Shown here in pieces: positions 9,085 to 50,371 of a stretch of 64,000 nt of DNA. How positions within the stretch are numbered: position 1 is the stretch's first letter; each line of letters starts with the position of its first letter. Made by a program: the position numbers and the translations under genes. The notes under the pieces were generated by a model, which worked only from the letters and a program-made list of their open reading frames with translations, had not been told where the DNA came from and made no database searches. The stretch covers positions 36,943 to 100,942 of the forward strand of contig JAWKNF010000008.1 of NCBI GenBank assembly GCA_041391825.1, given 5' to 3'. The DNA comes from Flavobacteriales bacterium (GTDB lineage: Bacteria > Bacteroidota > Bacteroidia > Flavobacteriales_F > PHOS-HE28).

Positions 9085-9834
9085 TCAGTTTTCCTGGTGT
9101 TCCAGTTCAATGCGGATCCGTTCCCTGCACGCGGCCACCTTCTCCGCAAGGCCCCGGTAGTTGCTCAGCATGTACACGCGCAGATCAAGGTTCATGAGCA
9201 CGGCGTTCTTGAACAAGTCGTCGGTCTTCAGTGCACTGAAGTCTTTTGGGCGCCCCGAACTCAATGCCATGCGCTTGTCCACGCTCGGGTCGATCACCAT
9301 CCTATCGATCACTGCGGGTATGACCACAGCATATTGCAAGGCATGGTCGTCCTGCTTCTCGAAATCGATCACATTGTGATAGCTGAATGAGTAGAGTTGA
9401 GTGATCATCATACGCAGGGAGTCGTTGGAGATGATCTCCAGCCCACGTGACTTCAGCGTTTCGTAGGCGCTGTAGTTCATCACCGAGCGTGTGGTGTAAA
9501 GGAGGTTGCCGAAATACTGGTCCATGGTATCGGAATATGCTTCATGCTCCTCCAAGCTTTTCAGTACCATTTCCGCAGCGCGCCGCCGCACTTCGTTGAA
9601 ATCAATGTTGAATTGGATGTCCACGGAATCCGCCTGTAGGTTGTTGGCGATCTCCTTCAGGTACTTGATCTCCACCTGCTTCAACTGCTGTTCGTTGTTC
9701 CAGTTGTTCAGCTGCAGTGCGATGACGATCCCGATGACCACCAGCACGATCTCGCCGATGGCATACGCGAGGTACCGTGTGATGCGGCCCTTGGCCAGCA
9801 GGCTCTGGCGGATGCTGCGGAGGAATCGGATCAT
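9085..9834 (-). CDS. DUF6090-like single-pass membrane protein, paralog 3.
   Basis: MIRFLRSIRQSLLAKGRITRYLAYAIGEIVLVVIGIVIALQLNNWN. Confidence 0.7.
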   Translation of the reverse strand: MIRFLRSIRQSLLAKGRITRYLAYAIGEIVLVVIGIVIALQLNNWNNEQQLKQVEIKYLKEIANNLQADSVDIQFNIDFNEVRRRAAEMVLKSLEEHEAYSDTMDQYFGNLLYTTRSVMNYSAYETLKSRGLEIISNDSLRMMITQLYSFSYHNVIDFEKQDDHALQYAVVIPAVIDRMVIDPSVDKRMALSSGRPKDFSALKTDDLFKNAVLMNLDLRVYMLSNYRGLAEKVAACRERIRIELEHQEN

Positions 9835-33992: not shown

Positions 33993-35569
33993 CTACTGAA
34001 CGATCAACTTCTTCGCGAAGGAGCCATGGTCCGTACTGACCCGCACGAAATAGATGCCATGTTTCAGATCGGAAAGGTCGATCGACCCCCGATCCTGTTG
34101 CAGCACGAAGGACCGCAGTTCGTTGCCGAGCAGGTCCACTACTTGCACCATTGGTCGGGTCATACCGCTGAAGCGCGGGTAGTACAGCACCGTGCGGTCT
34201 TGGGCCGGGTTCGGGTACAGCGCGAAGGCATCTTCCGCATCCGACATGTCCGGACCCAGCGTTGTGTTTGTGTTGATCGTGACCGCTTGGGAGAAGTTGT
34301 TGGAGCAGTTCGAAGCATTGGTGTTGTTCACGACCACGTTCACAGTGCCGATCGGACCAGCACCCCAGTTGACATCGATGCTGTTGGTGGAGGAGGAGCC
34401 CGTTCCGCCGTCAACGATCCATGCATAGGTGTAGCTGGCGACCAGTGGAACACTGTATGTGGCCGACTGACTGCGCAACAGTGGCAGGGCCATCGATCAT
34501 CATGGAAGGTCGCGGAGCGCTGCCCAGAAGGCGTTGAAGTTGGCCCTGTTGGAAATTGCCCACGTACACGGTGTCGCTGGCGACATGGATCGCTTGTACG
34601 GTGCTCCACACGTTCGACGCACGAGGCGTTCTAACAGGTGGCCTGCGCGCATTGCTGATCCTGGATCTGCGTACACATAGCGTTTGTCCGCCCAGGAGGT
34701 AGGAGTTAAGCGCCACCCAGATGTAGTCGCCATCCGGTAGAGGCTCAGTGTTTCAAAGCTGCTGTTGTTCGGAGCGAAAGGGTCACGTTGCCGCTGAGGT
34801 CATAGGCCGCAACGCCTTGACGAGGTACCCCACCGACCATGTCGAAATCGCCACCCACGCAGAGGTGGTCGTTCGTGGCGCACGATGGCCGTGACCCTGA
34901 AGCGAGCCATCAATGGTCCGGACAGGTGGCTGTCCAAGGCCCCGGTGAGCTTGTCGAAACGACAGAGGTCGCCGTACACGAGGCTGGTACAAGCTGAACT
35001 GCCCACCCACGTACACATGGTCATCGCCCACATGCACGGCATTGATGTTCGGCCCGCCGGCACTGAAATCCGGGGAGCCTCTGCCATCCGGTGGCCAAGC
35101 CTGTGGCATCCACGGCAACGAGCCTCGAAGGGTTCAGCTTGCAGTAACAGAAGGTGCTGTCTTCCACACCAACGCCTTGCCTCCAGGAAATGAAATTCGC
35201 ACTGTCGTCTACCTGTTCTGTTGCCCGTGGCCAGGTCGAACATGCAAATGCCCAGTCTGGGCTGGCTGTTCACGGTCTGGAATGGATTCCACCGACCATC
35301 AGTTTGTCCGCCACCCCGTTGATGGAGGTGACCGTGTTCGTGATATCCGTCGGGCTCCAGGCATCGAGTTCGTTGGTGGTGGCGCTGGAAGGGCCAGGCC
35401 AGCGCGGAACGCCATCGACCATGCTGAATTGCTCACCGATGTAAACGGTATTGCCGACCTTCTCGATGGCGTACACATCCGTGTTCGGTACAGGCCCGCC
35501 GAGCAGGGTTTGCGAGGGCGGCAAATGAGAGGGAACAGAGCAGGAGGGTAAGGAGGGTCTGGCGTGCAT
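33993..35569 (-). pseudogene. T9SS cargo protein with beta-propeller-type repeats and an Ig-like region, broken by many frameshifts.
   Basis: N-terminal signal peptide MHARPSLPSCSVPS... then VYAIEKVGNTVYIGEQFS, with NAVHVGDDHVYVGGQFS repeats in other frames. The C-terminal piece carries YAWIVDGGTGSSSTNSIDVNWGAGPIGTVNVVVNN and the T9SS CTD ALYPNPAQDRTVLYYP...GIYFVRVSTDHGSFAKKLIV. At least five frame changes are seen. Confidence 0.55.
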
Positions 35570-35707
35570 GGAGCCTGTACGTGCAAGACGGGCAATGGAG
35601 GATGGTTGTGCGGGCGGCCACGCCTTAGTCGCGCTTCTTCACACCCTGATAGAGGCCCAGCAGCTCGTCAAGCACTCAGATAGGGAATGCGCCAACGCAC
35701 AAGGCCA

Positions 35708-35790
35708 GCGCATTTTGCAAGACCAACCTATGTCCCGGCGCAGCCGACCACAGCGCGCATTTGCATAGGCTGTGACAGTCTTGCAGCACA
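35708..35790. repeat. Hairpin (inverted-repeat) element TTTTGCAAGAC...TGCATAGG...GACAGTCTTGCA, copy 1 of 3.
   Basis: Shares the TTTGCAAGAC-(C)CTATGTCC...GCATTTGCATAGG...GACAGTCTTGCA skeleton with copies at 44596-44680 and 45160-45235. Confidence 0.6.
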
Positions 35791-36499
35791 CAACCCATCA
35801 ACACCTCCCATCGCGATGCACCCCACTGGTCCCGCTCACCTCGTCCTGAGCTTCTTCACCGCTGCTGCAAGCACGCCTCAGGTCGAATTCGCCCGCGTTC
35901 AGCGCGTCCAAGCGAAGTGTAGCGCAAGGGCCAGCGTGCCGAGGTCCTCGTAGGGGCCACTGCTCACCCTCTCCATGGCGCGATTCTGACCGTCATTTTG
36001 ATGAGTACCCATTTGCCCTGGGTAAGTCCCGCCAGCTGTATCAGGCGCAATCGATACTTCCAGTTCCGTGCGGGTCATGGCGGTGCGGATCCTTCAAAGG
36101 ACGAGAACGCGGCTTTGTTGCGGATAAGGCGCCGTTGCTGCCGTCGTAGACCGACCGCGCTTATCGCATGTTCTAACCGTCGTGCGCTATGTGCAAGTAG
36201 CATCACGCATTGCACATACACAGCTACATCATGCGCCAGTCGTCGGCAGGTGGCCGCAAAGCGGGGATGTCCACGATCAGCGCGGCCGCGTCCGGCTCGG
36301 GGTCTTGTGCTGCGAGCCAGTGCGAGCTTGGACTGGCTTTGGTAGCCTGCCCCGGGCCCGACTCCGGGGTGGCGCCTTTTTTGATGGAAGCCCTGGCAGA
36401 ATTGATGCGGGGCCGGCGAAGCAAAAGGTGAAGACAATAGCGGACACCAAACTGCAGGCATTGCCCACACAGCATTGTCATCCATCACCAAGCATGCGG

Positions 36500-36915
36500 A
36501 TGCACTGTCACTTCGCACTGCTTGGTCCGCCACGTAGCACTGTTGGGTCCGTCACGTAGCACGTGGTGCTCCGTCACTTAGCACTGGTTGGTCAATCACT
36601 TACACTGCATCCATCAGGCAGCACTGGGTGGTCCATCACTTAAGCACTGGGTGGTCCACCACTTAGCACTAGGTGGTCAGGGACCACTCTACACTGGGTG
36701 GTCCACCACTTGAAGACTGGGTGTCCACCACTTAGCACTGGGCAATGCACCACTCAGCACTGGGTGGTCCATCACTTAGCACTGGGTGGTCCACCACTTA
36801 CACTCAGGTGGACCACTTAGCACTGGGTGGTCCACCATCAGTATTGGTGGTCGACCACTTAGCACCGGGGTGGTCCATCACTTAGCACTGGGTGGTCCAT
36901 CACTTAGGCCTGTAT
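36500..36915. repeat. Tandem array of about 18 imperfect 22-bp units, consensus CACTTAGCACTGGGTGGTCCAY.
   Basis: Read directly: ...cacttagcactgggtggtccat cacttagcactgggtggtccac cacttagcact... Copies are more degenerate at the left end. No ORF is present and the unit length is not a multiple of 3. Confidence 0.85.
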
Positions 36916-37975
36916 GCCGCCGTGCACGCCCCCGCTTATGGTAGTTTCCGATAGCATTATAGGACTTTCCAGTTACCGTATCGGCAACGGCGATAGGCCG
37001 CATGTCCTGTGCACGAGCGCCGCGCGAGGGACGCCATGGAATTCACCAGCGGCCGAAAAACCAAGAACGCCATGAGAGCGAACATCAAGACGGACTTGCC
37101 AACATGCTGCCCCCAGCCTTGCTGGCCTTCTTCAACCACATCATCGCGAAGCTCACCGGCAATCGCGACGTTCCTCAATCCGCCCATGTCCATAGTGGAT
37201 ATGACCACCCGGAAGTTGCCGCAGACTGCCATCTCCGCCGCCATCGATGGCAACAGCACCGACCGCGCCCACCGCAACGCCGTGGTGAAGGAGGTGCAGG
37301 ACGTGCTGCGCATCACGGCGGGGATCATGCGCGCGCCGAATGCGAGCGGCGACGCCGAGCCTGCTCACCACCGGCGGCTACCCTGGCCAAACAGCCCGAG
37401 ACGTACACGGAGTGTGGCATCCCCAAGAACGCAGCGCCAGTGCCACTGATGTAAGCGGCGAGGGTGAAGCTGTGGTGGGCTGCACGCAGGCCGCGCGCAT
37501 GTTCCGCATCGAACAGGCTTTCACCAGTGACCCCACCCTGGGCGAGACCACCCAGCCAACGTAGCAGGGGTGAGCCGCCAGCGCGTTTCACCGTTCCGGT
37601 CCTCTACGCCTGGCAGCTACTTCTAATTCCGCATCATCGCCATGGGCATCGACAGAAGGCCTACTGGCTGACGGCACTGGGCTGCCCCAGATAGCTCGGT
37701 ACCCCAGTCCTGACATGCCAGCCCCGGCACCGAAGAGGAATGCGGAGGTGGCGGGGTTATTGCGTTAGCTGCAATACCCACGCCAGCCTGCCGTAGCCAA
37801 TGGCCTTTAACCCGCCGGGCGTCTGTTGGTGACGAATGCCTGTATGGACGTTACAAAAAGCTTATGCAAGAAGAAGCATTATCGGTTGTAGTGTTGTAGT
37901 GGCTTGTCAGTAACTGTGTGGAAAGGCTTTGTATTTGGGATATTACTAGCGAACATTTGTCTCCATCTTAGCGCA

Positions 37976-39322
37976 ATGCGCTTTGTCGATTTATTCGCCG
38001 GTCTAGTGGCTCACGTTGGGCTCGAACGACTTGGACACGAGTGTGTCTTCGCGAGTGAGTTGGACCTGATGTTACAGGACGTGTCTATGAAAAGAATCAT
38101 GGTATTCGTCCAGTAGGTGATATTCGAAAGGTGAAATCTGGGCGATGTGCCCGAACACGACATTCTATGTATGCTTCCATGCCAACCATTTTCTAAGGCG
38201 GGAGAACAAGCTGGATCTGATTGTCTACGAACGGCTCACTTCGATGAAGTTCATCGGGTAATCCGATACCGTAAGCCTGAGTACGTCATCCTTGAGAATG
38301 TCCCGAATCTGCGGCACTCACGATGATGGGCGTACATGGGCATCAATCAAACAGAGCCTTGAGTAGGCTCGGATACGCGGTTGCAGAATGTATCTACTCG
38401 CCGCATGAGTTTGGCATAATTCTGATCTGAAAGCGACTGCCGCCCGTTGCTAAGCGAGACGAAGGGTTCTGCTGGCCGAAGCGACCTGTGAACCTGTCGT
38501 CGTTGCGCAACATTCTTGACAAGGAGCCAATTGGTGCCCGACCACTCAGCCCCAGTTGTAGACTGTCTGGAAGTATGGCAGGACTTCTTGAATCGAATAC
38601 CCAAGGACGCCCCATTTTCCAGTCATGGTCGATGGAGTTCGGTGCGACGTACCCTTCGAGGAGCAGACGCTGTTCTCTAGGCAGCGAAGGGCTTAGGCAT
38701 ATCGAGGGGCGCAAGGTATGAGACTTGACAGAAGAGATATTCCAGATGCGTTCGAGGCGCTGCTATCTTATGCGCGCACTGAGGACGACCAGTTCCCAGC
38801 TTGGGAAGCGAGCGTTCATAAGGCCGAACCGAGCGTTCTATCAGAAACACAAACGAGAACTGAAATCGTGGTTGCTGGAGATCCTCCGCTTCCCACCGTC
38901 GCCGCAGAAGTTCGAGTGGAATTGTAAGGGAGGTGAGCGCGATGTTTGAAGTATGATCCAGTTTCGGCCTAGGCGCGTGCAACGACCTGACACGAGTCCT
39001 TCATTGGTCGCAATGATCACTACACAGGTTCATCATCGGCTGGGAACGCTACATGACCACTAATGAATGCGCTCAATTACAATCGTTTGGACTGCTGAAG
39101 CATCTGCCCTCCACTGGAACGAAAGCCTTTAAGGCGTTTGGCAATGCGGTGAATGCAAGGTTGGTGGCCAACGCTGGCGAACTTCTTGATGCCCATCAGG
39201 ATGCTGCACCATCCGCTACGAAGCCAATCAGGCAGAGCACCACTTACTGCTCGCTTGATATGTATCTTCTTTACTATGGACGTCAATATCCGCCCAGGGG
39301 TCAATATTCTTTCTGTACTTAA
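37976..39322 (+). pseudogene. C5 cytosine-specific DNA methyltransferase (Dcm-type), heavily frameshifted and stop-interrupted, inside a low-GC segment.
   Basis: Motif I MRFVDLFAGL...GLERLGHECVFASELD; motif IV QPFSKAGEQAGSD in a shifted frame; motif VI ILENVPNL; motif X LTTNECAQLQSFGLLKHLP...AFKAFGNAVNARLVA. No single frame stays open for more than about 90 aa. Confidence 0.7.
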
Positions 39323-39344
39323 TACCTGAGCTATAAGCATTGGT

Positions 39345-40481
39345 ATGCTCGGCGAGTTCGTCGACAATGCAGTCAACAGCGGCATAGAGCGCAATTGGAA
39401 TCGACTGCAATCGATGCATGGTCAAGGTTACAAGCTGCGCGTGGACATTGAGACGATAAGAACGACGGTGTGTCGCATCGTTATCTGCGACAATGCTGCT
39501 GGCATCGCTTCTGTCGACTACCAACGTGCTTTTCGGACCGCAGAGATACCAATTGATCGTACTGGTTTCTCTGAGTTCGGGATGGGGATGAAGAGTGCTG
39601 GCTTCTGGTTCACCAACACATGGACTGTCCGCACAAAAGCCATTGGTGAGAACCGTGCAGGCAAGATTTATTTGATCTAGCCAGGGCATCATGGATGGTG
39701 GTCTTGAGACTCTGCCGGTGGAAGAGGAGCTCGCGAAAATGGAGGAGCATCATCGAGTTGGTACTTCTTTCGGCCAGCTAAGATGGTCAAGAGACCATTG
39801 GAAAGATTTCAAGGAGCATCTCACGAGCATCGCCAGTTCCTCAATGTGAGGGGAAGCTGGAGATATATTATGACGGCGAGTTGCTCCACTATGAAGAACT
39901 TAAAATTCTGGAAGCGGCTAATCCCAGAGACCCCGGGCAAAGTGGTCGTCTGAAGAAGCAAGTGGACGTCCGACTTGCAGGCAACAAGCGCATACACGGG
40001 TTCGTAGCGATTCGCGAGGAAGCGAAGCTGTCGTGGAGGCTTGGATTGGCCTTGTTCCGTCGCGGTCGGTCGATCTTGGGGAGCGGGGATGGCTATCGAC
40101 TCCACTTCCGTGTTCGGACAACCTAACAGTTAGTCGCTATCAACGGCATTCAAGAACTACACGTCGAAGGCTTTGGAGTAAGCCATACAAAGGATGTTAT
40201 CCAGTGGGAACATTCCCGAAGAGGACTTCGTTGGTTCTCAGGAAGTGATTGATGCAGAGCCGTTGCCGATTTTGAAGATGGCGGAAGAATACCGCGCACG
40301 AACAAGGACCACGAGCATTGTCCGAGCAGCACAATCTGCAGCAGCGTCAACGGCGCAAGCTTCTGGCGCGGCGCAAGCGATCATCGATGGCCAGCGACAT
40401 GAGCAAAAGCTGTTCCTAGCCCACTGCCAGTATCGCTTCCTTTGTCAGTTGAGATACCTGCAACCAAAGAGTTCAAATTGA
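39345..40481 (+). pseudogene. GHKL-type ATPase (HATPase_c_3/MORC-like), frameshifted after about 110 aa.
   Basis: N-box EFVDNAVNSG, G1 box ICDNAAGI, G2 box FGMGMKSAG in the first 111 aa. Downstream pieces continue in other frames. Confidence 0.55.
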
Positions 40482-40815
40482 CTTTTCTCGTATCAGGAGT
40501 GGCTCGTCACTATCGATCTGGCGAACGATTCTGCAATAGAGGACTGGCTGGATATATCGCAGAACCAAAGGAGCGATAGGCAGCGCCAATTGAAAATTCG
40601 CGTGAACCTTCGCGCATCCGTTCATGCAACGGTTCAGTGGGGCATCCGGGGAACAGATCGAGCTCATGTTGCGCGTTGCGGGCTGCGTTAGCCATTGCAG
40701 AGACTATTGCTCGATGTTGGGGTTCGACAAGCGGGTACTATCAGACAGCATAAACGAGTTGCCCAGAAGTTGCCCTTATGCGCCGAGCGAGACGAACGAC
40801 TAACAGGTGGCATGA

Positions 40816-42400
40816 GTGATATTCAACTTGATTGAACCAAACATGGCATCTTCTGGTGTTGGCTGGGTACCTGCAATTGGGCAGGAGACCGAAGATCTTC
40901 TTGAACACTTCAAGGGGAAGTTGGACGAAGTGCAGGGAGCGAGAACCTCATTGAATCAACGACTCGGATTTCGGCCAATGCGCTCTAACAGTTGGCCCTG
41001 CAGACAACAGCAACCGGTCTGGTAGCTGGATATGTTCAGAGCGGCAAGACGATGTCCTTTACGACCGTGGCTGCGATGGCAGTGGACAACGGCTATCCAG
41101 TGGTAATTGTAATAACTGGCACGTCCAACGACCTATATCGACAGTCCGCACAGCGACTTGAACAAGACCTCTGCCTTCATTCGCGCTTTGACCGCAAGTG
41201 GCAACATCTGCAAGAACCAAGACAGAACGAAGGTGACCGCATCAGCAGGATACTCCAGATTGAGGACCCTAGCGTGCCAATTCCTTGATCGACAGATACT
41301 TTGTTACAATCAAGAAGAACTGGAGTGTGCTACGGAGGCTGATCACTTTGCTGCGCCAATGCGACCTGAACGGAATTCCTGCTTTGATCATCGATGACGA
41401 GGCGGATCAGGCGAGCTTGAACACTAGAGTGAACGATGACGATGAGAGCGCTACTTACGCCCGTATTCGTGGGCTCCGAGGTTTATTCCCCTGTCAAGCA
41501 CCTTTCTGCAGTACACTGCTACGCCGCAAGCCAATCTACTCATCAACATCCTTGATAGCCTTTCTCCCGACTTTGTTGAGTTGCCAACACCCGGTGAAGA
41601 CTACTCCGGTGGTATCGAGTTTTTCGGTGATGACTCCAGGTCTCGTTCGCGATATACCCGTGAACGAACTACCTGCGCGGAACAACCCTGCACCTGAGGT
41701 TCCTGAAACCTTGATGGAAGCGATGCGTGTGTTCTTCCCGCTGGTGTGGCTATCGGCACATTAAGGGTGAGGCGCGTCAGGGCAAGAACCGCAGCATGTT
41801 GGTACATCCATCTCGAGAAACCAATCCACAGGGGTACTATGCACAATGGGTCAGGCATCTCAAGCGCCACTGGAAGCGGACTCTTTCTCAGCCGGAGGGC
41901 ACCAGGACGATAGGAGTTACTCGAGGACTTCAAGTCGGCGTTTGATGATATCGCCCAGACTGTTCCCGAGGACTGCCGACATGGGAGGAAGTCTCCAATG
42001 CATTGTGCCGGGCGATTGCAAAGACCGATAGCGGGGAAGTGAACTCAACCACGCGTTTGGTGGCTGATACCAATTACATCAGACTATGCGCGGATACTCA
42101 TTGGCGGCTACACTCGATCGGCTTCACAATTGAAGGTCTAACGGTGACTCATATGCCGCGAGGACTTGGGTCTATGGAACTGCTGACACGCTGCAACAGC
42201 GTGCTCGCTTCTTTGGTTATAAACGGAGCTATTTGGGGTATTGCAGGCTGTACTTGGATGCTGGCGTCCGAGATGCCTTCATTGACTACGTGGAGCACGA
42301 GGAGAGCATACGAAGAATTGAATGACCTCAGAACGCGACAAGTGCCGTTGAAGCAATGGCGGCGGGCGTTCATCTGTCTCTCCTGATTGCAAACTCACGC
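40816..42400 (+). pseudogene. Z1-domain-like P-loop NTPase, the kind of protein typically linked to C5-MTase genes; multiply frameshifted.
   Basis: LQTTATGLVAGYVQSGKTMSFTTVAAMAVDNGYPVVIVITGTSNDLYRQSAQRLEQDL is a Z1-type Walker A segment. It is followed by ...GIPALIIDDEADQASLNT (Walker B/DEAD-like) in another frame. Confidence 0.5.
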
Positions 42401-44504
42401 GGAGAAACGTTCTTTCGTTGACCATCTCCGTGATGGCGGCGACCGGTGGTTCTGGGTGAAGGCTCCGCATGCATCTATGGACTTGTGTGGCGAACCGAAT
42501 TGCATTCGACTTTTACCGACCGGCACAGTTTCTGGAACCACCTCGGCGATCTTTCGGTGCTGCTGCCACGCGGTACATGGGGTTGCTGGATTGGCGCTCA
42601 GTGACGTTTGCGAGCAGCTTCTTTTCTCAGAGGCGTTCCGAACCTGAAGAGAATCAGAAGTACGGGGTGCCTTCCAGATTGATAGGTTCCTCAGAGAGCA
42701 TCCGCATGAGCTATGCGATGTCTACATCATCTGACCGGACGATAGTGCACGATGCCGCTAACGACAAGCAGGAGATCGATAACATTTTTCAGCTCGAATA
42801 GACAGGAAGGTGATCCGCAGTACTACCTTGGTGACAGAGAAATTCACGCAGAGAGATTGACTATTCAATTGCGGCGCTTGACATTGACCCAGAACGGGGC
42901 AGAGATCAAGCACAGACATTCCGGTGCTGGCAATCTGGGTGCCTGGTTCTATGGAGCAGCAATGGCTTGTTCAATGACTAGTTGATGAAGGAGTTGCTCA
43001 AAGCGTTTGAGTTCCCTTCCTGCCTGCGTGATTCTTCTGCGGGGTTGTTCGCATTTCATACCCTCCTTGCTCTTTCCCAAGGCCCGGTTCCTCATTGCGA
43101 AGACAACTTCTTGTGTGAGGCATGCATGCTCATAGGTACGGCTGCATCCTTGGCTACACTTCCACCGCCTTTACGGTTAGAGAATCCTCACCGTTCAGCA
43201 TGTACTGACGGTCGAGTTCATAAGTTATATGGCTGCGGGTACATTCTCTGTGGTTCTTCGCAATAGCCAGCGTTCATTGGTAGAGATGTTCGTCAGGTTT
43301 TGCGGTTGTTGCTACGCATCAACTTCCTGGGACCCCATAGCGGCTGATGCGGCTTCCCACATCCAGAGGCTCGTCCTCTTCGCTTCTTCAGCACCTGCGC
43401 AAGCCAAGCACCAAGACCATTCAAGGGCTTTGAGTGAACTCTTTCTATCGCTACACGAGATAACCCTGAACGGGTCAATGGATGGCATGTGCATCCAATG
43501 GGCCTGCACGATTTCATCTTGAAGAAATTCGCTGAGGCTAACATGCCTCATAAGGTTAGTCGCATCGCTTTTCGCACAATCAACTTTCTCCACCAAGGGG
43601 GGGCATCGCTCTTCGTAGCGTCAGTGCTAATGGAACGATCCGGTCAGGGTATATCAGTGTTCGACCTGCCGAGAGGGCGCATGCACGCCTTTCTCCCAAT
43701 GCCTCACTTCTTCTTGATAGCACGCATCAATAATTTCAACGCTTGGTCTCGACTACGTGAAGTGTTGGCGGAAATCACCTGACGCTGCCTGCGCAGCAGA
43801 CTCCACTCCTCTTCTTTCCTTGGATGTGGTGCCACGCCTGTCCGCTGACACTCCCGAGCGGGTTACTGAGCATCTCCTACACCGTCAGATTATTTGACTT
43901 GACGGCGAGCCGGATTTGGTCGTTGCGTGAGCGACCGCAGCGAAAATCCCGCAAGCGTCCAGTATATTTAGGCGCGCCCAAACCTTTAAAATGTTGCCCG
44001 TGTCCAGTCACTTCAATTTTGGTCCATACCTTCCGCACCATCGTCAGCATCGCAGCAATAGCCACCGTCTCGCCGGCTGTAAAGTCGTTTATTCAGGAAT
44101 CTGTTCTTGCCAGTAGTGCAGGTGCTCCTTATAGCCGTTCCTTTCAGGGTGTTCCAAGTCCAGCATCCGCCTAGCGCCGCATCAAACGCCGCCAACTGTT
44201 CGCTTTGCACAACTCGATGAGTCTTCGTAAAGAGCATACTCGCCGTAGAGATGGAAGATGGTGTTGCCGAAGGTCCTGTCAGCTGCCCCTTGCTGACTGG
44301 TCTCGAGGCTGCAGTCCGCGAGTTCAGTTTTCAGCCATCCGGCATCGTTGTGGAGCATAGGAATCGTCGCTTGAGCAATGCTTCGGAAATGGGCATAGGT
44401 TCCGATGTCAACGAGCACGCTTCTCATCGATCTCCTCAACGCTCGCGGACCTTGCGTTTGAGGTTAAAGACGACGACATCCCACCATATCGTGCAGTCAG
44501 TTTT

Positions 44505-44770
44505 GGATAGAGCTTTCACCATGGTCAAGATCGTCGCTGTCGCCACCGTCTCCCGGTCTCATCCACATAAGAATGCTTCCGCGCATGCGGCCCGCGCTTT
44601 TTGCAAGACTGTCCTATGTCCTATGCAGCCCACCACGGGGTTCGCATTTGCATAGGACATCAGACAGTCTTTGCATCGTACAACATCAGCGCCGATCGAG
44701 TTTCCGGACCATGGTAAGAATAGTGGCAATGGCAACCGTCTCCCTGTTTCATCCACCACATCCACCAGCC
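44505..44770. repeat. About 260-bp repeat block, copy A. It contains the hairpin element and two copies of the sub-motif GCGATGGCAACCGTCTCCC-GTTTCATCCAC.
   Basis: Direct comparison with 45085-45350 shows the same order of sub-motifs at roughly 80% identity. A further partial sub-motif copy lies at about 44055. Confidence 0.7.
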
Positions 44771-45084
44771 ACTTCATGAGCCCTTGGTCTTATAGTTGAA
44801 CTTCTCACTAACAGGACCATGGTCACGAGGAAGTGAGTCCCGATGGCAATTAACAAATAGAACCACCACACAAGTGCATTGCCTCTCGAAAGAGCGAACA
44901 GTCCGTACAGAAGAGGAGTTAATTGTACAGTGCCAGGATGACCAGATGGCGGAAGATGGTTGTTTCGACTCCTGCTGCGTGCGGCGAGTGCGAAAACTGC
45001 CGCCCTCAGCAATAGATAGCCGACGAGTAGCCGACCAGGTCATCCCCGCATGGTCTCATCCGTTCTGATCCAACTTCCCCACCG

Positions 45085-45350
45085 TCGTCAAGACGTCGCA
45101 ATGGCCACCGTCTCCCGGTCTCATCCACAAAAGAAGAAGCCCGCGCACAAGGCTCAGTAAGCGTAAGACTGTACCATGTCCTATGCGCCCAGCATGGGGC
45201 TCAGATTTGTATATAGACACCGGACAGTCTTGGTATCGTACTGCTCATCGCCCTCCGATCGAGCTTCCGGACCATGGTAAGAATAGAAGGCGATGGCAAC
45301 GGTCTTCCAGTTTCGTCAACACATCCACCAGGAACTTCACAATGCCTGTC
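45085..45350. repeat. About 260-bp repeat block, copy B.
   Basis: See copy A. Confidence 0.7.
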
Positions 45351-45399
45351 GCGATGTCTGCACCTCCTTAGGGGCTGTCCTCGGTCTTCGGCTTCTTCT

Positions 45400-47250
45400 C
45401 CCGATCCACCTCTCTTTCACCGTGAACTTCACTTGATCACGGCGCCGGGGTATACTGGCTTGCGAAGCGGGCTTCCTCGACGCCGTAGTTCAGCAGCACC
45501 GGCCCTTTGGCGCATCCACGAAGAGCATGCGCGGCTGAGGATGAAGTGCTGTGCGCCACACGTCCGGTGAAGATGGTGCCGTCCAGGCGTTCTCGTCCAT
45601 GTGGGCGTAGAACTTGTCGCGCACGAGGTCCGCGAAGTTGTTGATGTCGTCCAGCGTCACGGTGTGCTTCTCGCCATCACGGTATCGCCCACCCGCACCG
45701 AAGTGCAATGCGGAAGGTGTGCTTCGGTGTAATCGTTTGCTTGGCACTTGTTGGTACTGTTGCGTGAGCGCGGTGATGGTGGTGGGGCTGCTCGATGGCG
45801 GTGTTGCAGTGCAGCACGCCGCGCTTGCCGCCCATCTCCTGGCCGCCACCCGCGCGACCAGGACCGCCGTGGCCAGCGTGGCCAAGGGTGAGCTTTCGTG
45901 GCCGGTGTTCTCCTTCGCCATGTCGCGGTCGATCACCAGCATGCGGCCGTGGTGGCTCGCAGCACCCCACACGAACTGCTGTGCGATGCTGTCGTCGTAG
46001 GTCGCGATGCCGGTACAGAGGCTCTTGCCGAGCTTGGTGAGGGCCACGGCATCGTCGATGTCCTTGTAGGGCATCAAGGTGCTCACCGACCGAAGGCCTC
46101 GATGTTGTGGCTTCGCTGGTTCTTCCACGGGTCCTTGTTCAGCAGCAGGGATGGGGCTCGCGGCTGCACCTTCGCCGCATCGGCACCGGTCACTCTACGT
46201 TTTTCGGGTCGCCGTACACCGTACCGCCGCCCTTCATCAGTTCGGCGAGGCTGTCGCGCATCAGCAGTGTTGCGTCTGTCCGGCGAGGGCACTCATGGCG
46301 CACGCCTTCGGCACGCGGGTCACCGATCACCGTGCCGAGGCGCTTGCCCAGCGACCTGCACATCCTCCACCAGGTTCTCGGGCACCCGCGATGCGCCGCG
46401 CACCGGTGCAGCGCTGGCCGCACTTCGTCATCTCCTTGCCGACCTCCTCTGATGAAGAGCGTGAACTCCTCGGTATCCGGCGTGGCATCGGGACCGAGCA
46501 CGATGCTGTTCAAACTGTCGGCCTCCATGCCGGTGCCACGCTCTCGGCGATGATGCGCGGGTGGCTTTCAGCATGCGGCCGGTCTTCGCACTACCGGTAA
46601 AGGTGACGACGTCCTGGCTTTCGACACGATCGAGCAGATCACCGCACTACCCACTTCATCAGCTGCAACGCCCCTTCGGGCAAGGGATCTGCTTTCGACG
46701 ATCGCCTTCGCCATCGCTTCGCGAGGTAGCTCGTCACGGTAGCGGGCTTCACCACGGCGGGCATCCCGGCCATCCAATTCACGGCGCACTTCTCCAGCAT
46801 GCCCCAGATAGGGAAGCGAACGCGTTGATGTGCACGGCCACGCCCTCCTTCGGCACCATGATGGTGGCCCATGAACGTCCCGCCGGCGGCTGGTGAGCAC
46901 CGGTGGTCCATCCACATAGAAGGGCATGCTGAGCCTGCTTGCGCAAGCTGGCGTTGGCGAACACGTTGCCGATGCCGCCCTCGATGTCCACCTGCACTCG
47001 TCGGCCTTGGTGGCGCCGGTGGTAGGCCGCATCTTGTAGAACTCGTCCTTGCGGTCCATGAGGTAGAGCGCGAGGGCCTTCACATGCGGCCGCTCCGGGA
47101 AGGTCATCTTGCGCAGGGGAGGACCGGCCCACTTCGCGGGCGTAAGTGAGCATGGCGCCGAAGTCCAGGCCGCTGCTTGACGTTGTGGCGATGAGTTGCC
47201 GGTGGAGGCGTCCACCAATTCACTTTATTGCCGGTGCCGGCACCCAGTGG
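45400..47250 (-). pseudogene. PaaZ-like bifunctional aldehyde dehydrogenase / MaoC-hotdog hydratase gene, high GC, riddled with frameshifts.
   Basis: Minus-strand fragments: ALDH motifs FPIWGMLEKCAVNWMAGMPAVVKPATVTSYL, ...MAKAIVES... and GDPRAEGV. The C-terminal MaoC piece reads HTVTLDDINNFADLVRDKFYAHMDENAW. The pieces are spread over all three frames. Confidence 0.5.
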
Positions 47251-47339
47251 CCGGCGATGTAGTTCTGTAGCTGCATTGGTGCTAAGGTCGGGAGGAATCG
47301 GGGAACGGCAGAGGAATGCGAATACATCCGCGATCACGT

Positions 47340-48795
47340 AGAGAGCACTTCGCTACCGCTCGTGGGTGGGGATGGTCGGGAATACATCCATAGACACAGA
47401 CGCTCTTGCCAACGCTCGTGGTGCTGGATGGTCGGCCGTGACCGCCGATTACGTTGATGTAGGTATTCTGCTACCGCTCGTGGGTGGGGATGGTCGGGAA
47501 TACATCCACAGATGTCACATCACTTCGCTAACGCTCGTGTGCTGGGATGAGTTGAATGTAGATCCGCCAACATGTTGATGCACTCGCTACTGCCGTGCGG
47601 CGTTGCCGGGCAACTCATCAGGAAAGGCTGCCGTTAGGCAAGCGATCTGCGTAATCTGCATCAGTTCTTTCCTTGACCATCCACAGATGTCGCTGCATCA
47701 CTTCGCCAACGCCCGTGTGCTGGGATGGTTGGGGAACACATCCGCGGATTACGCAGAGGTACTCGCTACCGCTCGTGGGTGGGGATGGTCGGGAATACAT
47801 CCACAGATGTCACGCATCACTTCGCTAACGCTTGTGTGTTGGGTTGGTAGGGAATATATCCGCGGATTACGCAGGACCTGTCCTGCCTAGTGGGAGGCAC
47901 CGCTACCGCTCGTGTGGCATTGCAGGGTATCTCTTATCAGCAAAGGTTGCCGTTAGCAAGCCATTCGCGTAATCTGCGATCAGTCTCTTTCCTTGACCAT
48001 CCACAGATAACACAGATCACTTCGCTAACGCCGTGTGCTGGGATGGTTGGGAATACATCCGCGGATTACGCAGAGGTATCGCTACTGCTCGTGGGTGGGG
48101 ATGGTCGGGAATACATCCACGGATGTCACGCATCACTTCGCTAACGCTTTCGTGTGTTGGGCTGGTAGGGAATACATCCGCGGATTACGTAGAGTAGACT
48201 CGCTACCGCTCGTGGGTGGGGATGGTCGTAAATACATCCACAGATGTCATTGCATCACTAACGCTCGTGTGCTGGGATGGTCGGGTCGTAGATCCGCCGA
48301 TTGCGCTGATGCACTCGCTACCGCTCGTGTGGCATTGCAGGGCATCTCATCAGGACAAGGCTGCCGTTAGGCAAGCCATCTGTGTCATCTGTGGATCGTT
48401 CTTATTCTTCCTTGATCATCCACAAATGTCACGGATCACTTCGCCAACGCTCGTGTGCTGGGATGGTCGGGTCGTAGATCCGCCGATTACGCTGATGCAC
48501 TCGCTACCGCTCGTGGGTGGGGATGGTCGGGAATACATCCACAGATGTCACGGATCACTTCGCTAACGCTCGTGTGCTGGGATGGTTGGGGAATACATCC
48601 GCGGATTACGCAGAGGTACTCGCTACCGCTCGTGTGGCGTTGCCGGGCAACTCATCAGGAAAAGGCTGCCGTTAGGCAAGCCATCTGCGTGATCCCGATT
48701 CTCGGGACAGGTCCTGCGGATCGTTTCTTTTTCCTTGACCATCCACAGATGTCACGGATCACTTCGCTAGTGCTCGTGGCTGGGATGCGTTGAAC
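47340..48795. repeat. Complex higher-order tandem repeat of about 1.45 kb. It alternates about 59-bp X and Y units (CGCTCGTG..GGGATGGTCGGGAATACATCC...) with interspersed about 125-bp Z units.
   Basis: More than 20 units read directly from the sequence. Each unit has the GGATG-N10-CATCC mini-hairpin. Y units carry the palindrome TCCGCGGA. Z units share GGCATTGCAGGGCATCTCATCAGGA-AAGGCTGCCGTTAGGCAAGCCATCTG. There is no consistent reading frame. Confidence 0.85.
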
Positions 48796-48828
48796 GTAGC
48801 GGCCTCCGGGCGTGCGGATGATGGGGCG

Positions 48829-49805
48829 TCACTCGATGAGCAACGATACTGCTGCGACCGTGCCGTTGCGGCCATCGGTCAAGCGCATTTCGTAGACCCC
48901 GGAGGAAGCGGGGGAGCTGGATGGATCGGCCTTGTACTGGCTTGATGGACCACACGGCCCGAACCGGAGAAGAGTTGCACCATGCAGCCGCTCGCATCCA
49001 CGGACAAGTGGACCTCCTGATCGTGGGTCACCGGGTTCGGGCATATGGGTGAAGGTGTCCGGTGCTTCCAGCATGACCGCCACGACGCGGGAAGTGGTGG
49101 AGCCTGCCGTCCAGGTCCGTCTGCCGCAAACGGTAGTAGGTGGTGCCGACGATCGGCCCGGTGTCGGATACGTTGTAGCGTTGGCAGGCTGGAGCTATGC
49201 TCCACGGCTTCGCCACACATGCAACAGGTCCTGGAAGGTGGTCCCATCGGTACTCCGTTCCACGGTGAAATGGTCGTTGTCCGTTTCGCTTGCCGTGCTC
49301 CACTCCAGGTCCACGGCGTTCGTGCCGGGGCTTGCTGTGAAGGAGACCAGTTCGATGGGCAACACGGAGATGGTGCAGGGAATGGTGCTGATCGGTGAGC
49401 GATGGACCGCTGATGCGGATGTTGACGGTGTTGCGCCCAACGCGGTGGGGCTGGCCGTGGTATACAGTCGGTACGGGTGGTCCAGGCATTGGAAGTGAGC
49501 ACGGTACCCGATCCACCGTTGTTGGGCAAGTCGAAATAGATACTGCTCGACCAGGAAATGTATCCCTGCACAGGGTACATGCTGCCTGGTGCGTTCGGTC
49601 CGGATGAACGCGATGTCATAAGCCATGTGCGCACCACGTAATTGTAGCCGCCCGCAGTTGTCCGTTGCAGGGACGTGATGGCCACGGGCCGCACGTTCAG
49701 GAACACGGTGTACCTGTTGGTGGAATTGACGGAGCACATCGCTTGGCACACCGGACCGGGGAGCAGGGATAGGATGAAGAGGGAGAGGATGGATCGGAGC
49801 ATGAC
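48829..49805 (-). pseudogene. Secreted T9SS-type protein, frameshifted.
   Basis: Signal peptide MLRSILSLFILSLLPGPV. The domain LPIELVSFTASPGTNAVDLEWSTASETDNDHFTVERSTDGTTF, and YNVSDTGPIVGTTYYRLRQTDLDG in another frame, parallel the intact gene at 17648-19432. Confidence 0.5.
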
Positions 49806-49867
49806 AGGATGTGAGCGACCTTCTACGCGCCTGCACGGCTTCCCGTTACGATGCTGTGTGCCGCGGT

Positions 49868-50367
49868 TCAACGCCGCATGGCGCAGATCAGCTCGTCCTC
49901 CGTACGACCGTTCTTGGAAGAACGTGCCTGCATGCGCGCTTCCAGCACGAAGCCTGCCTTTTCCAACACCCGCTGCGAAGCGGTGTTGCTGCCGTATGGT
50001 CGCAGCATCCGGCATCTCCGGCAGCAGCTTGAACCACGTGCCACCGCTTGCTGGATGGCAGGTGCCATGATGCCCTTGCCCTGATGCTGCTTGCCATCCA
50101 GTAGCCCAGCCTCGCAATGGTGGCGATAGACGTCGCCTTGCGGAGCTGATGCCTACGGCGCCCACTGCTTCGCTGTCCACATCAATGGCCAGCAATGGTA
50201 CCTGCGGTCCGCGCTACGAAGCGGGCGAGGAATGCTTTGCCGTGTTCCTCGGTGTACGGGTGTGGAAAGGCATCCGCGAGATTATCGGCCACCGTGGCGT
50301 CGCTGGCGTGTTCCACCAGTGCAGGCAGGTCGGCCATGGTCCACGGGCGAAGCGTGAAGTGCGTCAT
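49868..50367 (-). pseudogene. GNAT-family N-acetyltransferase (RimJ/RimL-like), frameshifted mid-gene.
   Basis: N-terminal MTHFTLRPWTMADLPALVEHASD...; C-terminal piece RPYGSNTASQRVLEKAGFVLEARMQARSSKNGR in a different frame. Confidence 0.5.
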
Positions 50368-50371
50368 TCGA

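Follow-up and report, generated by a model that had tools for sequence, protein, structure and literature searches.

The question raised by this locus is what kind of element fills the gap upstream of paaZ in an uncultured, high-GC Flavobacteriales bacterium, where a tandem array of about 1.5 kb with a higher-order period is located. The array lies in a stretch of 64,000 nucleotides (nt) of contig JAWKNF010000008.1 (positions 36,943 to 100,942 of the forward strand), which is referred to below as the window and in which coordinates are counted from the first letter. An earlier note, made from the letters alone, had described a satellite-like repeat at the edge of a decayed island and had proposed a set of protein-binding sites, a small-RNA or repeat-RNA locus, or a site at which some former element was replicated or partitioned. 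According to the analysis described here, the array is best read as a lineage-private, non-coding minisatellite with higher-order structure that was amplified in situ and is most likely without a selected sequence-specific function; the probability of this reading is put at roughly 0.6.

Anatomy of the array

Slots were defined by cutting at the anchor motif CGCTCGTG, and the resulting pieces were then aligned. The following units were obtained:

47297-48828, plus strand: whole tandem array, 21 slots, head-to-tail and all direct, from dissection at anchors and alignment
47297-47355, plus strand: Y0, degenerate B-type unit at the left edge, of which only the tail GAATACATCCGCGATCACGTAGAGAGCACTTCGCTA is recognisable
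47356-47590, plus strand: dimers 1-2, the most degenerate copies (X1 47356-47411, Y'1 47412-47473, X2 47474-47530, Y'2 47531-47590)
47591-47905, plus strand: higher-order copy (Z1 47591-47708, Y1 47709-47768, X3 47769-47827, Y2 47828-47905)
47906-48205, plus strand: higher-order copy (Z2 47906-48027, Y3 48028-48084, X4 48085-48143, Y4 48144-48205)
48206-48506, plus strand: X5 48206-48260, Y'3 48261-48320, Z3 48321-48446, Y'4 48447-48506
48507-48828, plus strand: X6 48507-48565, Y5 48566-48625, Z4 48626-48765, degenerate Y'5 48766-48828

A degenerate Y-like remnant is followed by ten dimers, each composed of an A-type unit (X, modal length 59 nt, or Z, with lengths of 118, 122, 126, and 140 nt; n=4) and a B-type unit (Y or Y', modal length 60 nt). 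The order after the remnant is X Y', X Y', Z Y, X Y, Z Y, X Y, X Y', Z Y', X Y, and Z Y' (this last Y' degenerate), with X/Z and Y/Y' in strict alternation. Overlapping rows from Tandem Repeats Finder (TRF; 47700-48694) gave periods of 59/60, 119-121, and 305 nt, and the base-identity autocorrelation has its maxima at lags of 119, 60, and 305. A satellite-like array with an X+Y period and longer Z units, as the earlier note had placed it, is thus borne out by TRF, autocorrelation, and dissection alike. The unit core GGGATGGTCGGGAATACATCC occurs nine times (at most 3 mismatches) versus 0.00 expected in shuffles, the Z core three to four times versus 0 expected, and the unit junction eight times versus 0.07 expected; elsewhere in the window none of these motifs was found, except for a single chance match with 3 mismatches.

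Some counts given earlier had to be lowered. More than 20 units had been said to carry the start motif; CGCTCGTG is exact in 13 units and lies within one mismatch at about 17 unit starts, the rest of that description being right. The mini-hairpin GGATG-N10-CATCC is present, but exact in only seven units (nine if N9-12 is allowed). The additional palindrome of the Y units was confirmed: TCCGCGGA is found in exactly five units, every one of them Y. A palindrome stands at the same position in each unit, in the form ATCCGCGGAT in the five Y units and ACATCCACAGATGT in X, and Y' has a broken form of it (ATCCGCCGAT). At least 12 substitutions separate distinct unit types, and each type recurs as several near-identical copies; same-type copies are 97-100% alike in the centre and on the right, and the left-edge copies are degenerate. 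Blocks are visible as Z1-Y1-X3-Y2 and Z2-Y3-X4-Y4 and in the 305-nt period from TRF. With 21 slots (at least 4 head-to-tail copies of a 10-270-nt unit) and non-coding content, the array is a minisatellite; its units abut without spacers, which separates it from arrays of clustered regularly interspaced short palindromic repeats (CRISPR).

The Z units are longer and distinct, as had been noted, but they are a variant of X and not an insertion between periods every few repeats. Each Z stands in the X position, has its head (CCGCTCGTGTGGC) and tail (CATCCACAGATGTCACGGATCACTTCGCTA) in common with X, and is about as long as two 60-nt slots. Its middle consists of an inverted copy of the X tail/junction or of the Y tail, together with a small GC hairpin. 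When the inverted arms of Z are set beside the X/Y tails, CGTTAGGCAAGCCATCTGTGTCATCTGTGGAT matches ATCCACAGATGTCACGGATCACTTCGCTAACG and TCTGCGTAATCTGC matches GCGGATTACGCAGA. Examples of both features are:

48365-48449, no strand assigned: inverted repeat inside a Z unit, whose arm CGTTAGGCAAGCCATCTGTGTCATCTGTGGAT is reverse-complementary to ATCCACAAATGTCACGGATCACTTCGCCAACG (X tail and junction)
48661-48682, minus-strand reading: Z core, a 7-base-pair (bp) GC hairpin GGCUUGCC-UAAC-GGCAGCC followed by a short U run

Y2 bears a 20-nt palindromic insertion (GGACCTGTCC...), and its 14-nt insertion motif (CGCAGGACCTGTCC) recurs inverted in Z4. Because of the inverted copies in Z and the insertion common to Y2 and Z4, the history of the array includes both inverted duplication and re-amplification of blocks.

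The minisatellite would have arisen from a short pre-existing intergenic element, amplified in situ through slipped-strand mispairing and unequal recombination. One inverted-duplication rearrangement would have produced Z, and re-amplification in blocks of about 300 nt (Z-Y-X-Y) would have followed later; concerted evolution may hold the central copies alike while the edge copies decay. We infer these amplification steps from the anatomy of the array; they were not observed. A probable side effect is that paaZ was pushed 1.5 kb away from its former upstream neighbour, and a minus-strand read-through transcript would gain a long untranslated C-rich stretch.

Flanking genes and sequence quality

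The array occupies the entire 1.55-kb gap between two co-directional minus-strand genes, paaZ and a gene for a protein secreted by the type IX secretion system (T9SS), and both junctions with the flanks are clean:

45254-47274, minus strand: paaZ (aldehyde dehydrogenase plus MaoC dehydratase), intact with 688-690 amino acids (aa) in relatives; ATG at 47274-47272
47275-47296, minus strand: conserved paaZ leader of about 22 nt, ATTCCTCCCGACCTTAGCACCA preceding the ATG; homology to relatives stops here and the array starts
48829-49400, minus strand: 3' end of the upstream gene, frameshifted; stop codon at 48829-48831

The segment 45254-47297 (minus strand) is 76-79% identical over 2.1 kb to the intact gene in two related loci, L009 and L011. 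The product of the upstream gene ends in ...SSGVYEMRLTDGRNGTVAAVSLLIE (in a longer reading ...GVYEMRLTDGRNGTVAAVSLLIE), and by eye its end resembles the C-terminal sorting tail of T9SS proteins. In the relatives L095 and L097 (86% identity), an ion channel, a GNAT acetyltransferase, a beta-helix T9SS protein, and paaZ are found in the same neighbourhood. Both flanks therefore belong to the core genome, and the array does not mark the edge of a foreign element: the island border suggested previously is in fact a gap between two core genes that are neighbours in relatives too.

The supposed decay of the region was examined at the level of indels. An indel-dense tract with sharp limits extends over 34600-50370, and no open reading frame (ORF) of at least 200 aa is present between 34.6 and 45.5 kb. 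The paaZ gene of the window is scattered over all three frames, and the GNAT homologue (50358-49863) is likewise split over three frames. A three-way alignment of paaZ gave 48 window-specific indels (36 deletions and 12 insertions, mostly of 1-2 nt) versus 0 in L009 and 1 in L011, whereas window-specific substitutions (212) are no more numerous than those of L009 (212). Substitution identity to the orthologues is 0.82-0.85, versus 0.83 between the two intact orthologues; after correction of the indels, the gene has a single internal stop, and its product is 78% identical to PaaZ of L011 and 84% to the best database match. A long-dead pseudogene would be expected to hold far more substitutions and stops; the profile is therefore that of a poorly polished long-read consensus. 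The decay of the 34.6-50.4 kb tract, on which the term "decayed island" had rested, is thus probably at least in part a matter of poor consensus quality, with real decay as the less probable alternative. Neither pseudogene calls nor ±1-nt repeat lengths in this tract are to be trusted.

The same problem touches the array: measured against the consensus of their type, the 12 well-formed units show 22 substitutions, 10 deletions, and 3 insertions. Due to this deletion bias (10:3), which is the same as in paaZ, differences of ±1 nt in unit length are unreliable, and modal lengths were used; among indel-free copies, three X have 59 nt and five Y/Y' have 60 nt. The array might, then, itself be an artefact of assembly or consensus, with a wrong copy number or unit order in a tract assembled from poorly polished long reads. 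In favour of this are the indels of the adjoining paaZ without any excess of substitutions, its reading through with one stop once corrected, the shared deletion bias, and the ending of short-read contigs of a 95%-identical relative before the array is reached. Consensus errors could not, however, produce an ordered higher-order pattern with shared rearrangements, nor unit types at least 12 substitutions apart that each recur in several near-identical copies, and the junctions with the flanking genes are clean. An artefact is accordingly regarded as quite improbable.

Chromosomal Bacteroidota genes make up the surroundings, including those for a Por_Secre_tail protein, MacB/FtsX and HlyD-type transport proteins, and a prolyl oligopeptidase. 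The closest relatives of the neighbouring ion-channel gene are from metagenome-assembled genomes (MAGs) of uncultured Flavobacteriales (78-86% amino-acid identity), several of which bear isolate names suggestive of activated sludge; one Logan contig has the ion-channel protein at 95%. Two independent short-read Logan contigs of the closest relative, with a 95% identical ion-channel protein (L086 and L087), both stop 330 nt beyond the ion-channel gene, within the beta-helix gene; this common end point may mark a repeat or a boundary that varies between strains.

Downstream of paaZ, the 3' end of a paaZ/MaoC-type gene (...DETGETVAIATILTMVRKLDQ*) recurs in three short copies on the minus strand (45056-45127, 44516-44565, and 44030-44076), and similar 3' fragments occur in L011 (18165-18224 and 18557-18630); they represent either the tails of dehydratase paralogues or partial duplications that occurred repeatedly. 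Another non-coding tandem array, at 36509-36907, comprises about 18 copies of the partly palindromic 22-nt unit CACTTAGCACTGGGTGGTCCAC and is absent from every fetched locus.

Coding, RNA, and replication readings

The array is most probably non-coding. Stops number 10-17 per frame in 526 codons on the plus strand and 20-21 on the minus strand, the longest array ORF has 116 aa, and variation per codon position in the Y-type units (0.16, 0.27, and 0.27) displays no third-position excess. Apart from artefacts due to the repeated query, neither the real nor the idealised (frame-corrected) translations matched a Pfam family, and a search of 5.8 billion proteins gave no homologue for an array ORF. 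The X+Y period amounts to 119 nt; the single open frame and multiple of three that characterise a coding tandem repeat are lacking. The non-coding assignment of the earlier note is upheld by these results, but its argument that unit lengths are not multiples of three is weakened by the many 1-nt indels of the tract that look like consensus errors, and is carried by the modal lengths of X (59) and Y (60) alone.

That the plus strand encodes a 20-residue repeat (ARVLGWLGNTSADYAEVLAT-like), masked by single-base deletions, was considered since the tract is indel-rich and both Y and Y' are open in one plus-strand frame, where they read ARVLGWLGNTSADYAEVLAT and ARVLGWSGRRSADYADALAT, respectively, with two synonymous-looking changes; one extra G in the GGG run of X would bring X into this frame as well. 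The three indel-free X copies are nevertheless all 59 nt long, the Z units carry stops in the frame in question, a start context is lacking, and both neighbours lie on the other strand. Together with the flat codon-position variation and the lack of a Pfam family or homologue, this makes such a repeat very unlikely.

RNA families were searched for with Rfam, which returned no match at the gathering threshold in the window; the best match of a permissive search was the microRNA model mir-2009, with 26 bits versus the required 90. Folding was compared with dinucleotide shuffles. On both strands X, Y, and X+Y fold no better than the shuffles (z -0.5 to +1.6), except for Y on the minus strand (z -2.4). 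Z3 does fold better (z -2.6 and -3.2), which is because of the inverted duplication within it, and the four Z copies are without one common fold. Helix tests were carried out on an alignment of 14 short units, whose recent copying keeps the power of these tests low: pairing is seen in 93% of cells for the GGATG/CATCC helix, with no compensatory changes and equal to shuffles, and in 72% of cells for the overlapping ACATC/GATGT helix, no better than shuffles.

The Bacteroidota -7 motif TAnnTTTG occurs neither in the array nor in its flanks. Sigma-70-like and terminator-like sites show no excess over shuffles, and the array contains just one terminator-like site on the minus strand. The Z-core hairpin is present in all four Z units and is only weakly terminator-like; the terminator scan is passed by Z4 alone, the energies being modest.

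These data bear on the proposal of a transcribed repeat RNA, i.e. a sponge or tandem small RNAs made from the GGA-rich plus strand or contained in a long minus-strand read-through leader of paaZ. Such an RNA would accord with the somewhat better folding of Z units, with the GC hairpin and short U run on the minus strand, and with the fact that read-through from the upstream gene must cross the array. It is at odds with the absence of an Rfam family, with X and Y folding at shuffle level, with a mini-hairpin free of compensatory changes, and with the lack of promoter motifs and per-unit terminators. The RNA locus named in the earlier note is therefore considered doubtful, covariance and structure prediction on the units having given neither compensatory changes nor a folding excess for X+Y.

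An origin of replication (iterons) or a partition site, as a relic of some former plasmid or integrated element, would bring together several features of the locus. Direct repeats with internal inverted repeats formally resemble sopC or iteron arrays, the 7-nt DnaA-box core ATCCACA occurs ten times in the array, and a low-GC island (a stretch with 52% GC at 38-45 kb) lies left of paaZ, 2-9 kb from the array. This island contains the following cassette:

38806-42310, plus strand: restriction/defence cassette, frameshifted, with dcm (cytosine-5 methyltransferase), a gene for an ATP-binding protein, and a gene for a Z1-domain protein

The dcm/ATP-binding/Z1 gene order is identical on the Hymenobacter cellulosilyticus plasmid NZ_CP095048.1. 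No phage match was obtained for the island, the one weak plasmid match being to the Z1-domain gene, and a Pfam search of its ten longest ORFs gave no match.

The context of the array largely refutes an origin or partition site. The core gene paaZ stands between array and island, both flanks are syntenic core genes in relatives, and no rep or par genes were seen, the flanks being paaZ and the T9SS protein gene. ATCCACA occurs only as part of the repeat unit; a single one of the ten sites comes within one mismatch of TTATCCACA, and over the whole window DnaA boxes are as numerous as expected by chance. The array has a GC content of 0.57-0.58, without an AT-rich stretch or a change of skew. A replication or partition site is very improbable. 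A DnaA-box cluster and an oriC or datA-like locus were also considered, and were rejected on the chance-level box count and the absence of an AT-rich region and of a skew change.

Relatives, binding sites, and known systems

Collections were scanned with the unit-core pattern GGGATGGTNGGG(N)AAYACATCC. No match was found in 185,579 species-representative genomes; four single matches in metagenome contigs and one in viral contigs were confined to the 21-26-nt pattern itself and are attributed to chance. The array is absent from 80 of 80 related loci, TRF detected nothing comparable in L006, L009, and L011, and 15 related loci have no array at the syntenic position, where the gaps upstream of paaZ measure 185-760 nt (185-235 nt in L088-L094 and 760 nt in L095). 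The search of the lineage that had been recommended for the unit thus returned no array, and single short elements built on a 9-mer in the closest relatives.

These elements were scored by local alignment versus 400 shuffles each. In L006, GCCATCTGCGTCATCTGCGGATC matches GCCATCTGTGTCATCTGTGGATC of Z3 at 21/23 positions (z 9.4); at the syntenic site of L009, CATCTGTGTCATCTG is exact over 15/15 (z 6.7); and in L010, ...CCGCCGATTACGCAGA matches the Y tail at 19/22 (z 6.0; nhmmer E-value 0.003). In the syntenic gap of L095 the Z core is matched, its orientation with respect to paaZ being the same (z 3.8), and a further element is found in L034, from the Cytophagales (z 3.6). Their common core is composed of 2-4 tandem 9-mers of the form NCRCNGATK, a pattern that occurs nine times in 1.5 Mb of fetched loci, eight of the nine being in the four nearest relatives. 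No Rfam family covers the 9-mer elements of the relatives or the array in L010. The repeats concerned are:

L009, 17857-17935: imperfect hairpin with 29-nt arms (ATCCACAGATGGCGCCGATGTCACAGAT / ATCTGTGTCATCTGCGCCATCGGCGGAT), 25-110 nt upstream of the paaZ start, with the same 9-mers as the window array
L010, 9510-9865: 96-nt tandem repeat, 3.8 copies, 90% matching, after a tRNA gene (9259-9342) and upstream of an ion-channel gene
L095, 14770-14990, and L094, 3580-3750: duplicated paaZ leader plus (AAGACAC)n; same structure in L097

Each 96-nt unit of L010 contains a 7-9-bp hairpin and three NCRCNGATK 9-mers. As a direct relative of the window units this array was rejected, the alignment not being significant (z 2.6); the two are linked via the common 9-mers only. 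A derivation of the unit head from the paaZ leader was rejected as well (alignment to the L088 and L094 gaps, z 0.9-1.4).

Duplications and microsatellites recur in the gap upstream of paaZ, which is a repeat hot spot in the clade. In L094, L095, and L097 the paaZ leader and first codons are duplicated, with the copies separated by (AAGACAC)n (15 copies in L095); L009 has a degenerate duplicate of the 5' coding part of paaZ in addition to the hairpin, and in L011 a duplicate of the paaZ 5' part lies 0.5 kb upstream. It was also observed that the 7-nt unit, standing between two start regions in L094, L095, and L097, could shift the frame with copy number.

The shared 9-mers call for a weighing of sequence-specific binding. 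An array of sites for a DNA-binding protein (nucleoid-associated, a titrated regulator, or centromere-like as for sopC), which would recognise ATCCGCGGAT, the ACATC-N4-GATGT palindromes, or the 9-mers, would explain the constant position of the palindrome in each unit and the conservation of the relatives' 9-mers above the genome average, and such a role has been proposed for bacterial tandem repeats by Subirana and Messeguer (PMC8161180). Nearby there is, on the other hand, no gene for a candidate binding protein and no par or rep gene, the flanks being core genes for metabolism or a secreted protein. Y' has a broken palindrome, X and Y have different ones, the orientation of the related elements relative to genes is inconsistent, and a unit of 59.5 nt corresponds to a non-integer number of helical turns. 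A binding-site array is judged to be rather unlikely.

It is possible, though improbable, that the array is the expanded form of an undescribed family of intergenic Bacteroidota elements (tandem NCRCNGATK 9-mers) serving as a platform or sponge for a protein- or RNA-binding factor that controls paaZ or nucleoid structure. If this were true, it would be a bacterial satellite combining true higher-order repeat organisation with a function. We know of no CsrA in this phylum, and a CsrA-type GGA sponge was set aside, also because the orientation of the elements relative to genes is inconsistent.

The neutral, locally amplified minisatellite remains the preferred reading, as no signal of selection was found for an RNA, protein, promoter-array, replication, or partition function. 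Several points weigh against it. The neutrality that we infer rests on missing signals; the short elements are 85-90% identical across genomes that are only about 75-80% identical overall, one of them being in a Cytophagales genome; the 9-mer motif could be under constraint, for example as a protein-binding site; and the copy number rests on a single assembly. The 9-mer pattern was, in addition, defined after the matches had been seen, so that its enrichment is in part circular. Neither the strict 59/60 alternation nor the retention of GGATG/CATCC at 93% is informative, and they do not speak against a function. If the minisatellite reading is right, the locus offers a clean bacterial example of satellite-style evolution, with unit alternation, inverted duplication within a unit, and block re-amplification, which arose at an intergenic hot spot and whose likely progenitor elements are still visible in relatives. 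It would be useful for the study of repeat dynamics and possibly as a strain marker, and would change no model.

Among known systems, the variable-number tandem repeats of mycobacteria of the MIRU type (mycobacterial interspersed repetitive units) are 40-100-bp tandem units in gaps between co-directional genes, which expand and contract by slippage or recombination. MIRUs occupy tens of loci per genome, usually with a low copy number at each, and in many cases include short ORFs that are coupled to adjacent genes; here, in contrast, there is one locus in 64 kb, with 21 slots and no frame. The F-plasmid site sopC adjoins sopAB, and each NsiR1 unit of Anabaena has its own promoter and terminator. 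Like sopC, the array consists of many direct repeats each with a small inverted repeat, but the plasmid/sopAB context is missing, and adjacent rep/parAB genes, an AT-rich region, and DnaA boxes, as would be looked for in an iteron or sopC-like locus, were not found. Like NsiR1, it comprises repeated units of about 60-100 nt upstream of a gene, but without a promoter and terminator in each. Repetitive extragenic palindromic (REP) sequences and bacterial interspersed mosaic elements (BIMEs), including REPINs, are similarly short, imperfectly palindromic, and extragenic, and the single elements of the relatives, such as the 29-nt-arm hairpin in L009, are REP-like. BIMEs, however, consist of 20-40-nt palindromic units that alternate in orientation and are dispersed at high copy, whereas the units of the array are all direct, without copies elsewhere in the 64 kb. 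Hallmarks of REP sequences are a GTAG/CGTC tag, a high copy number, and a RAYT transposase gene, none of which was seen in the 64 kb covered. Given the dispersed single elements in other genomes, a distant relationship with REP/BIME is conceivable.

The bacterial satellites that Subirana and Messeguer described come in constant size classes, 20-23 nt or 52 nt, are species-restricted in their sequence, and have no known function (PMC8161180). The array shares with them the head-to-tail, non-coding, intergenic arrangement of at least 4 units of 10-270 nt and the short characteristic motifs; it differs from both size classes in its 59/60-nt units, and also in their alternation, the double-length variants, and the period of about 305 nt. 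The 22-nt array at 36509-36907 does fit the 20-23-nt class (PMC8161180) and is near the 23-nt size of BrickBuilt (PMC4596501). BrickBuilt, from Porphyromonas gingivalis, is a minisatellite embedded in a MITE (miniature inverted-repeat transposable element), with units of 23 nt, terminal inverted repeats on its leader and tail subunits, 19 copies in each genome, and a promoter activity that has been demonstrated (PMC4596501). Its occurrence in Bacteroidota, intergenic position, spacer-less direct repeats, and limited host range are paralleled here; bracketing terminal inverted repeats, a second copy in the window, and promoter motifs are not. The array belongs among the non-coding bacterial tandem repeats, and it is set apart from bacterial satellites, MIRU, and BrickBuilt by its unit size and by the alternation of two units with a higher-order period.

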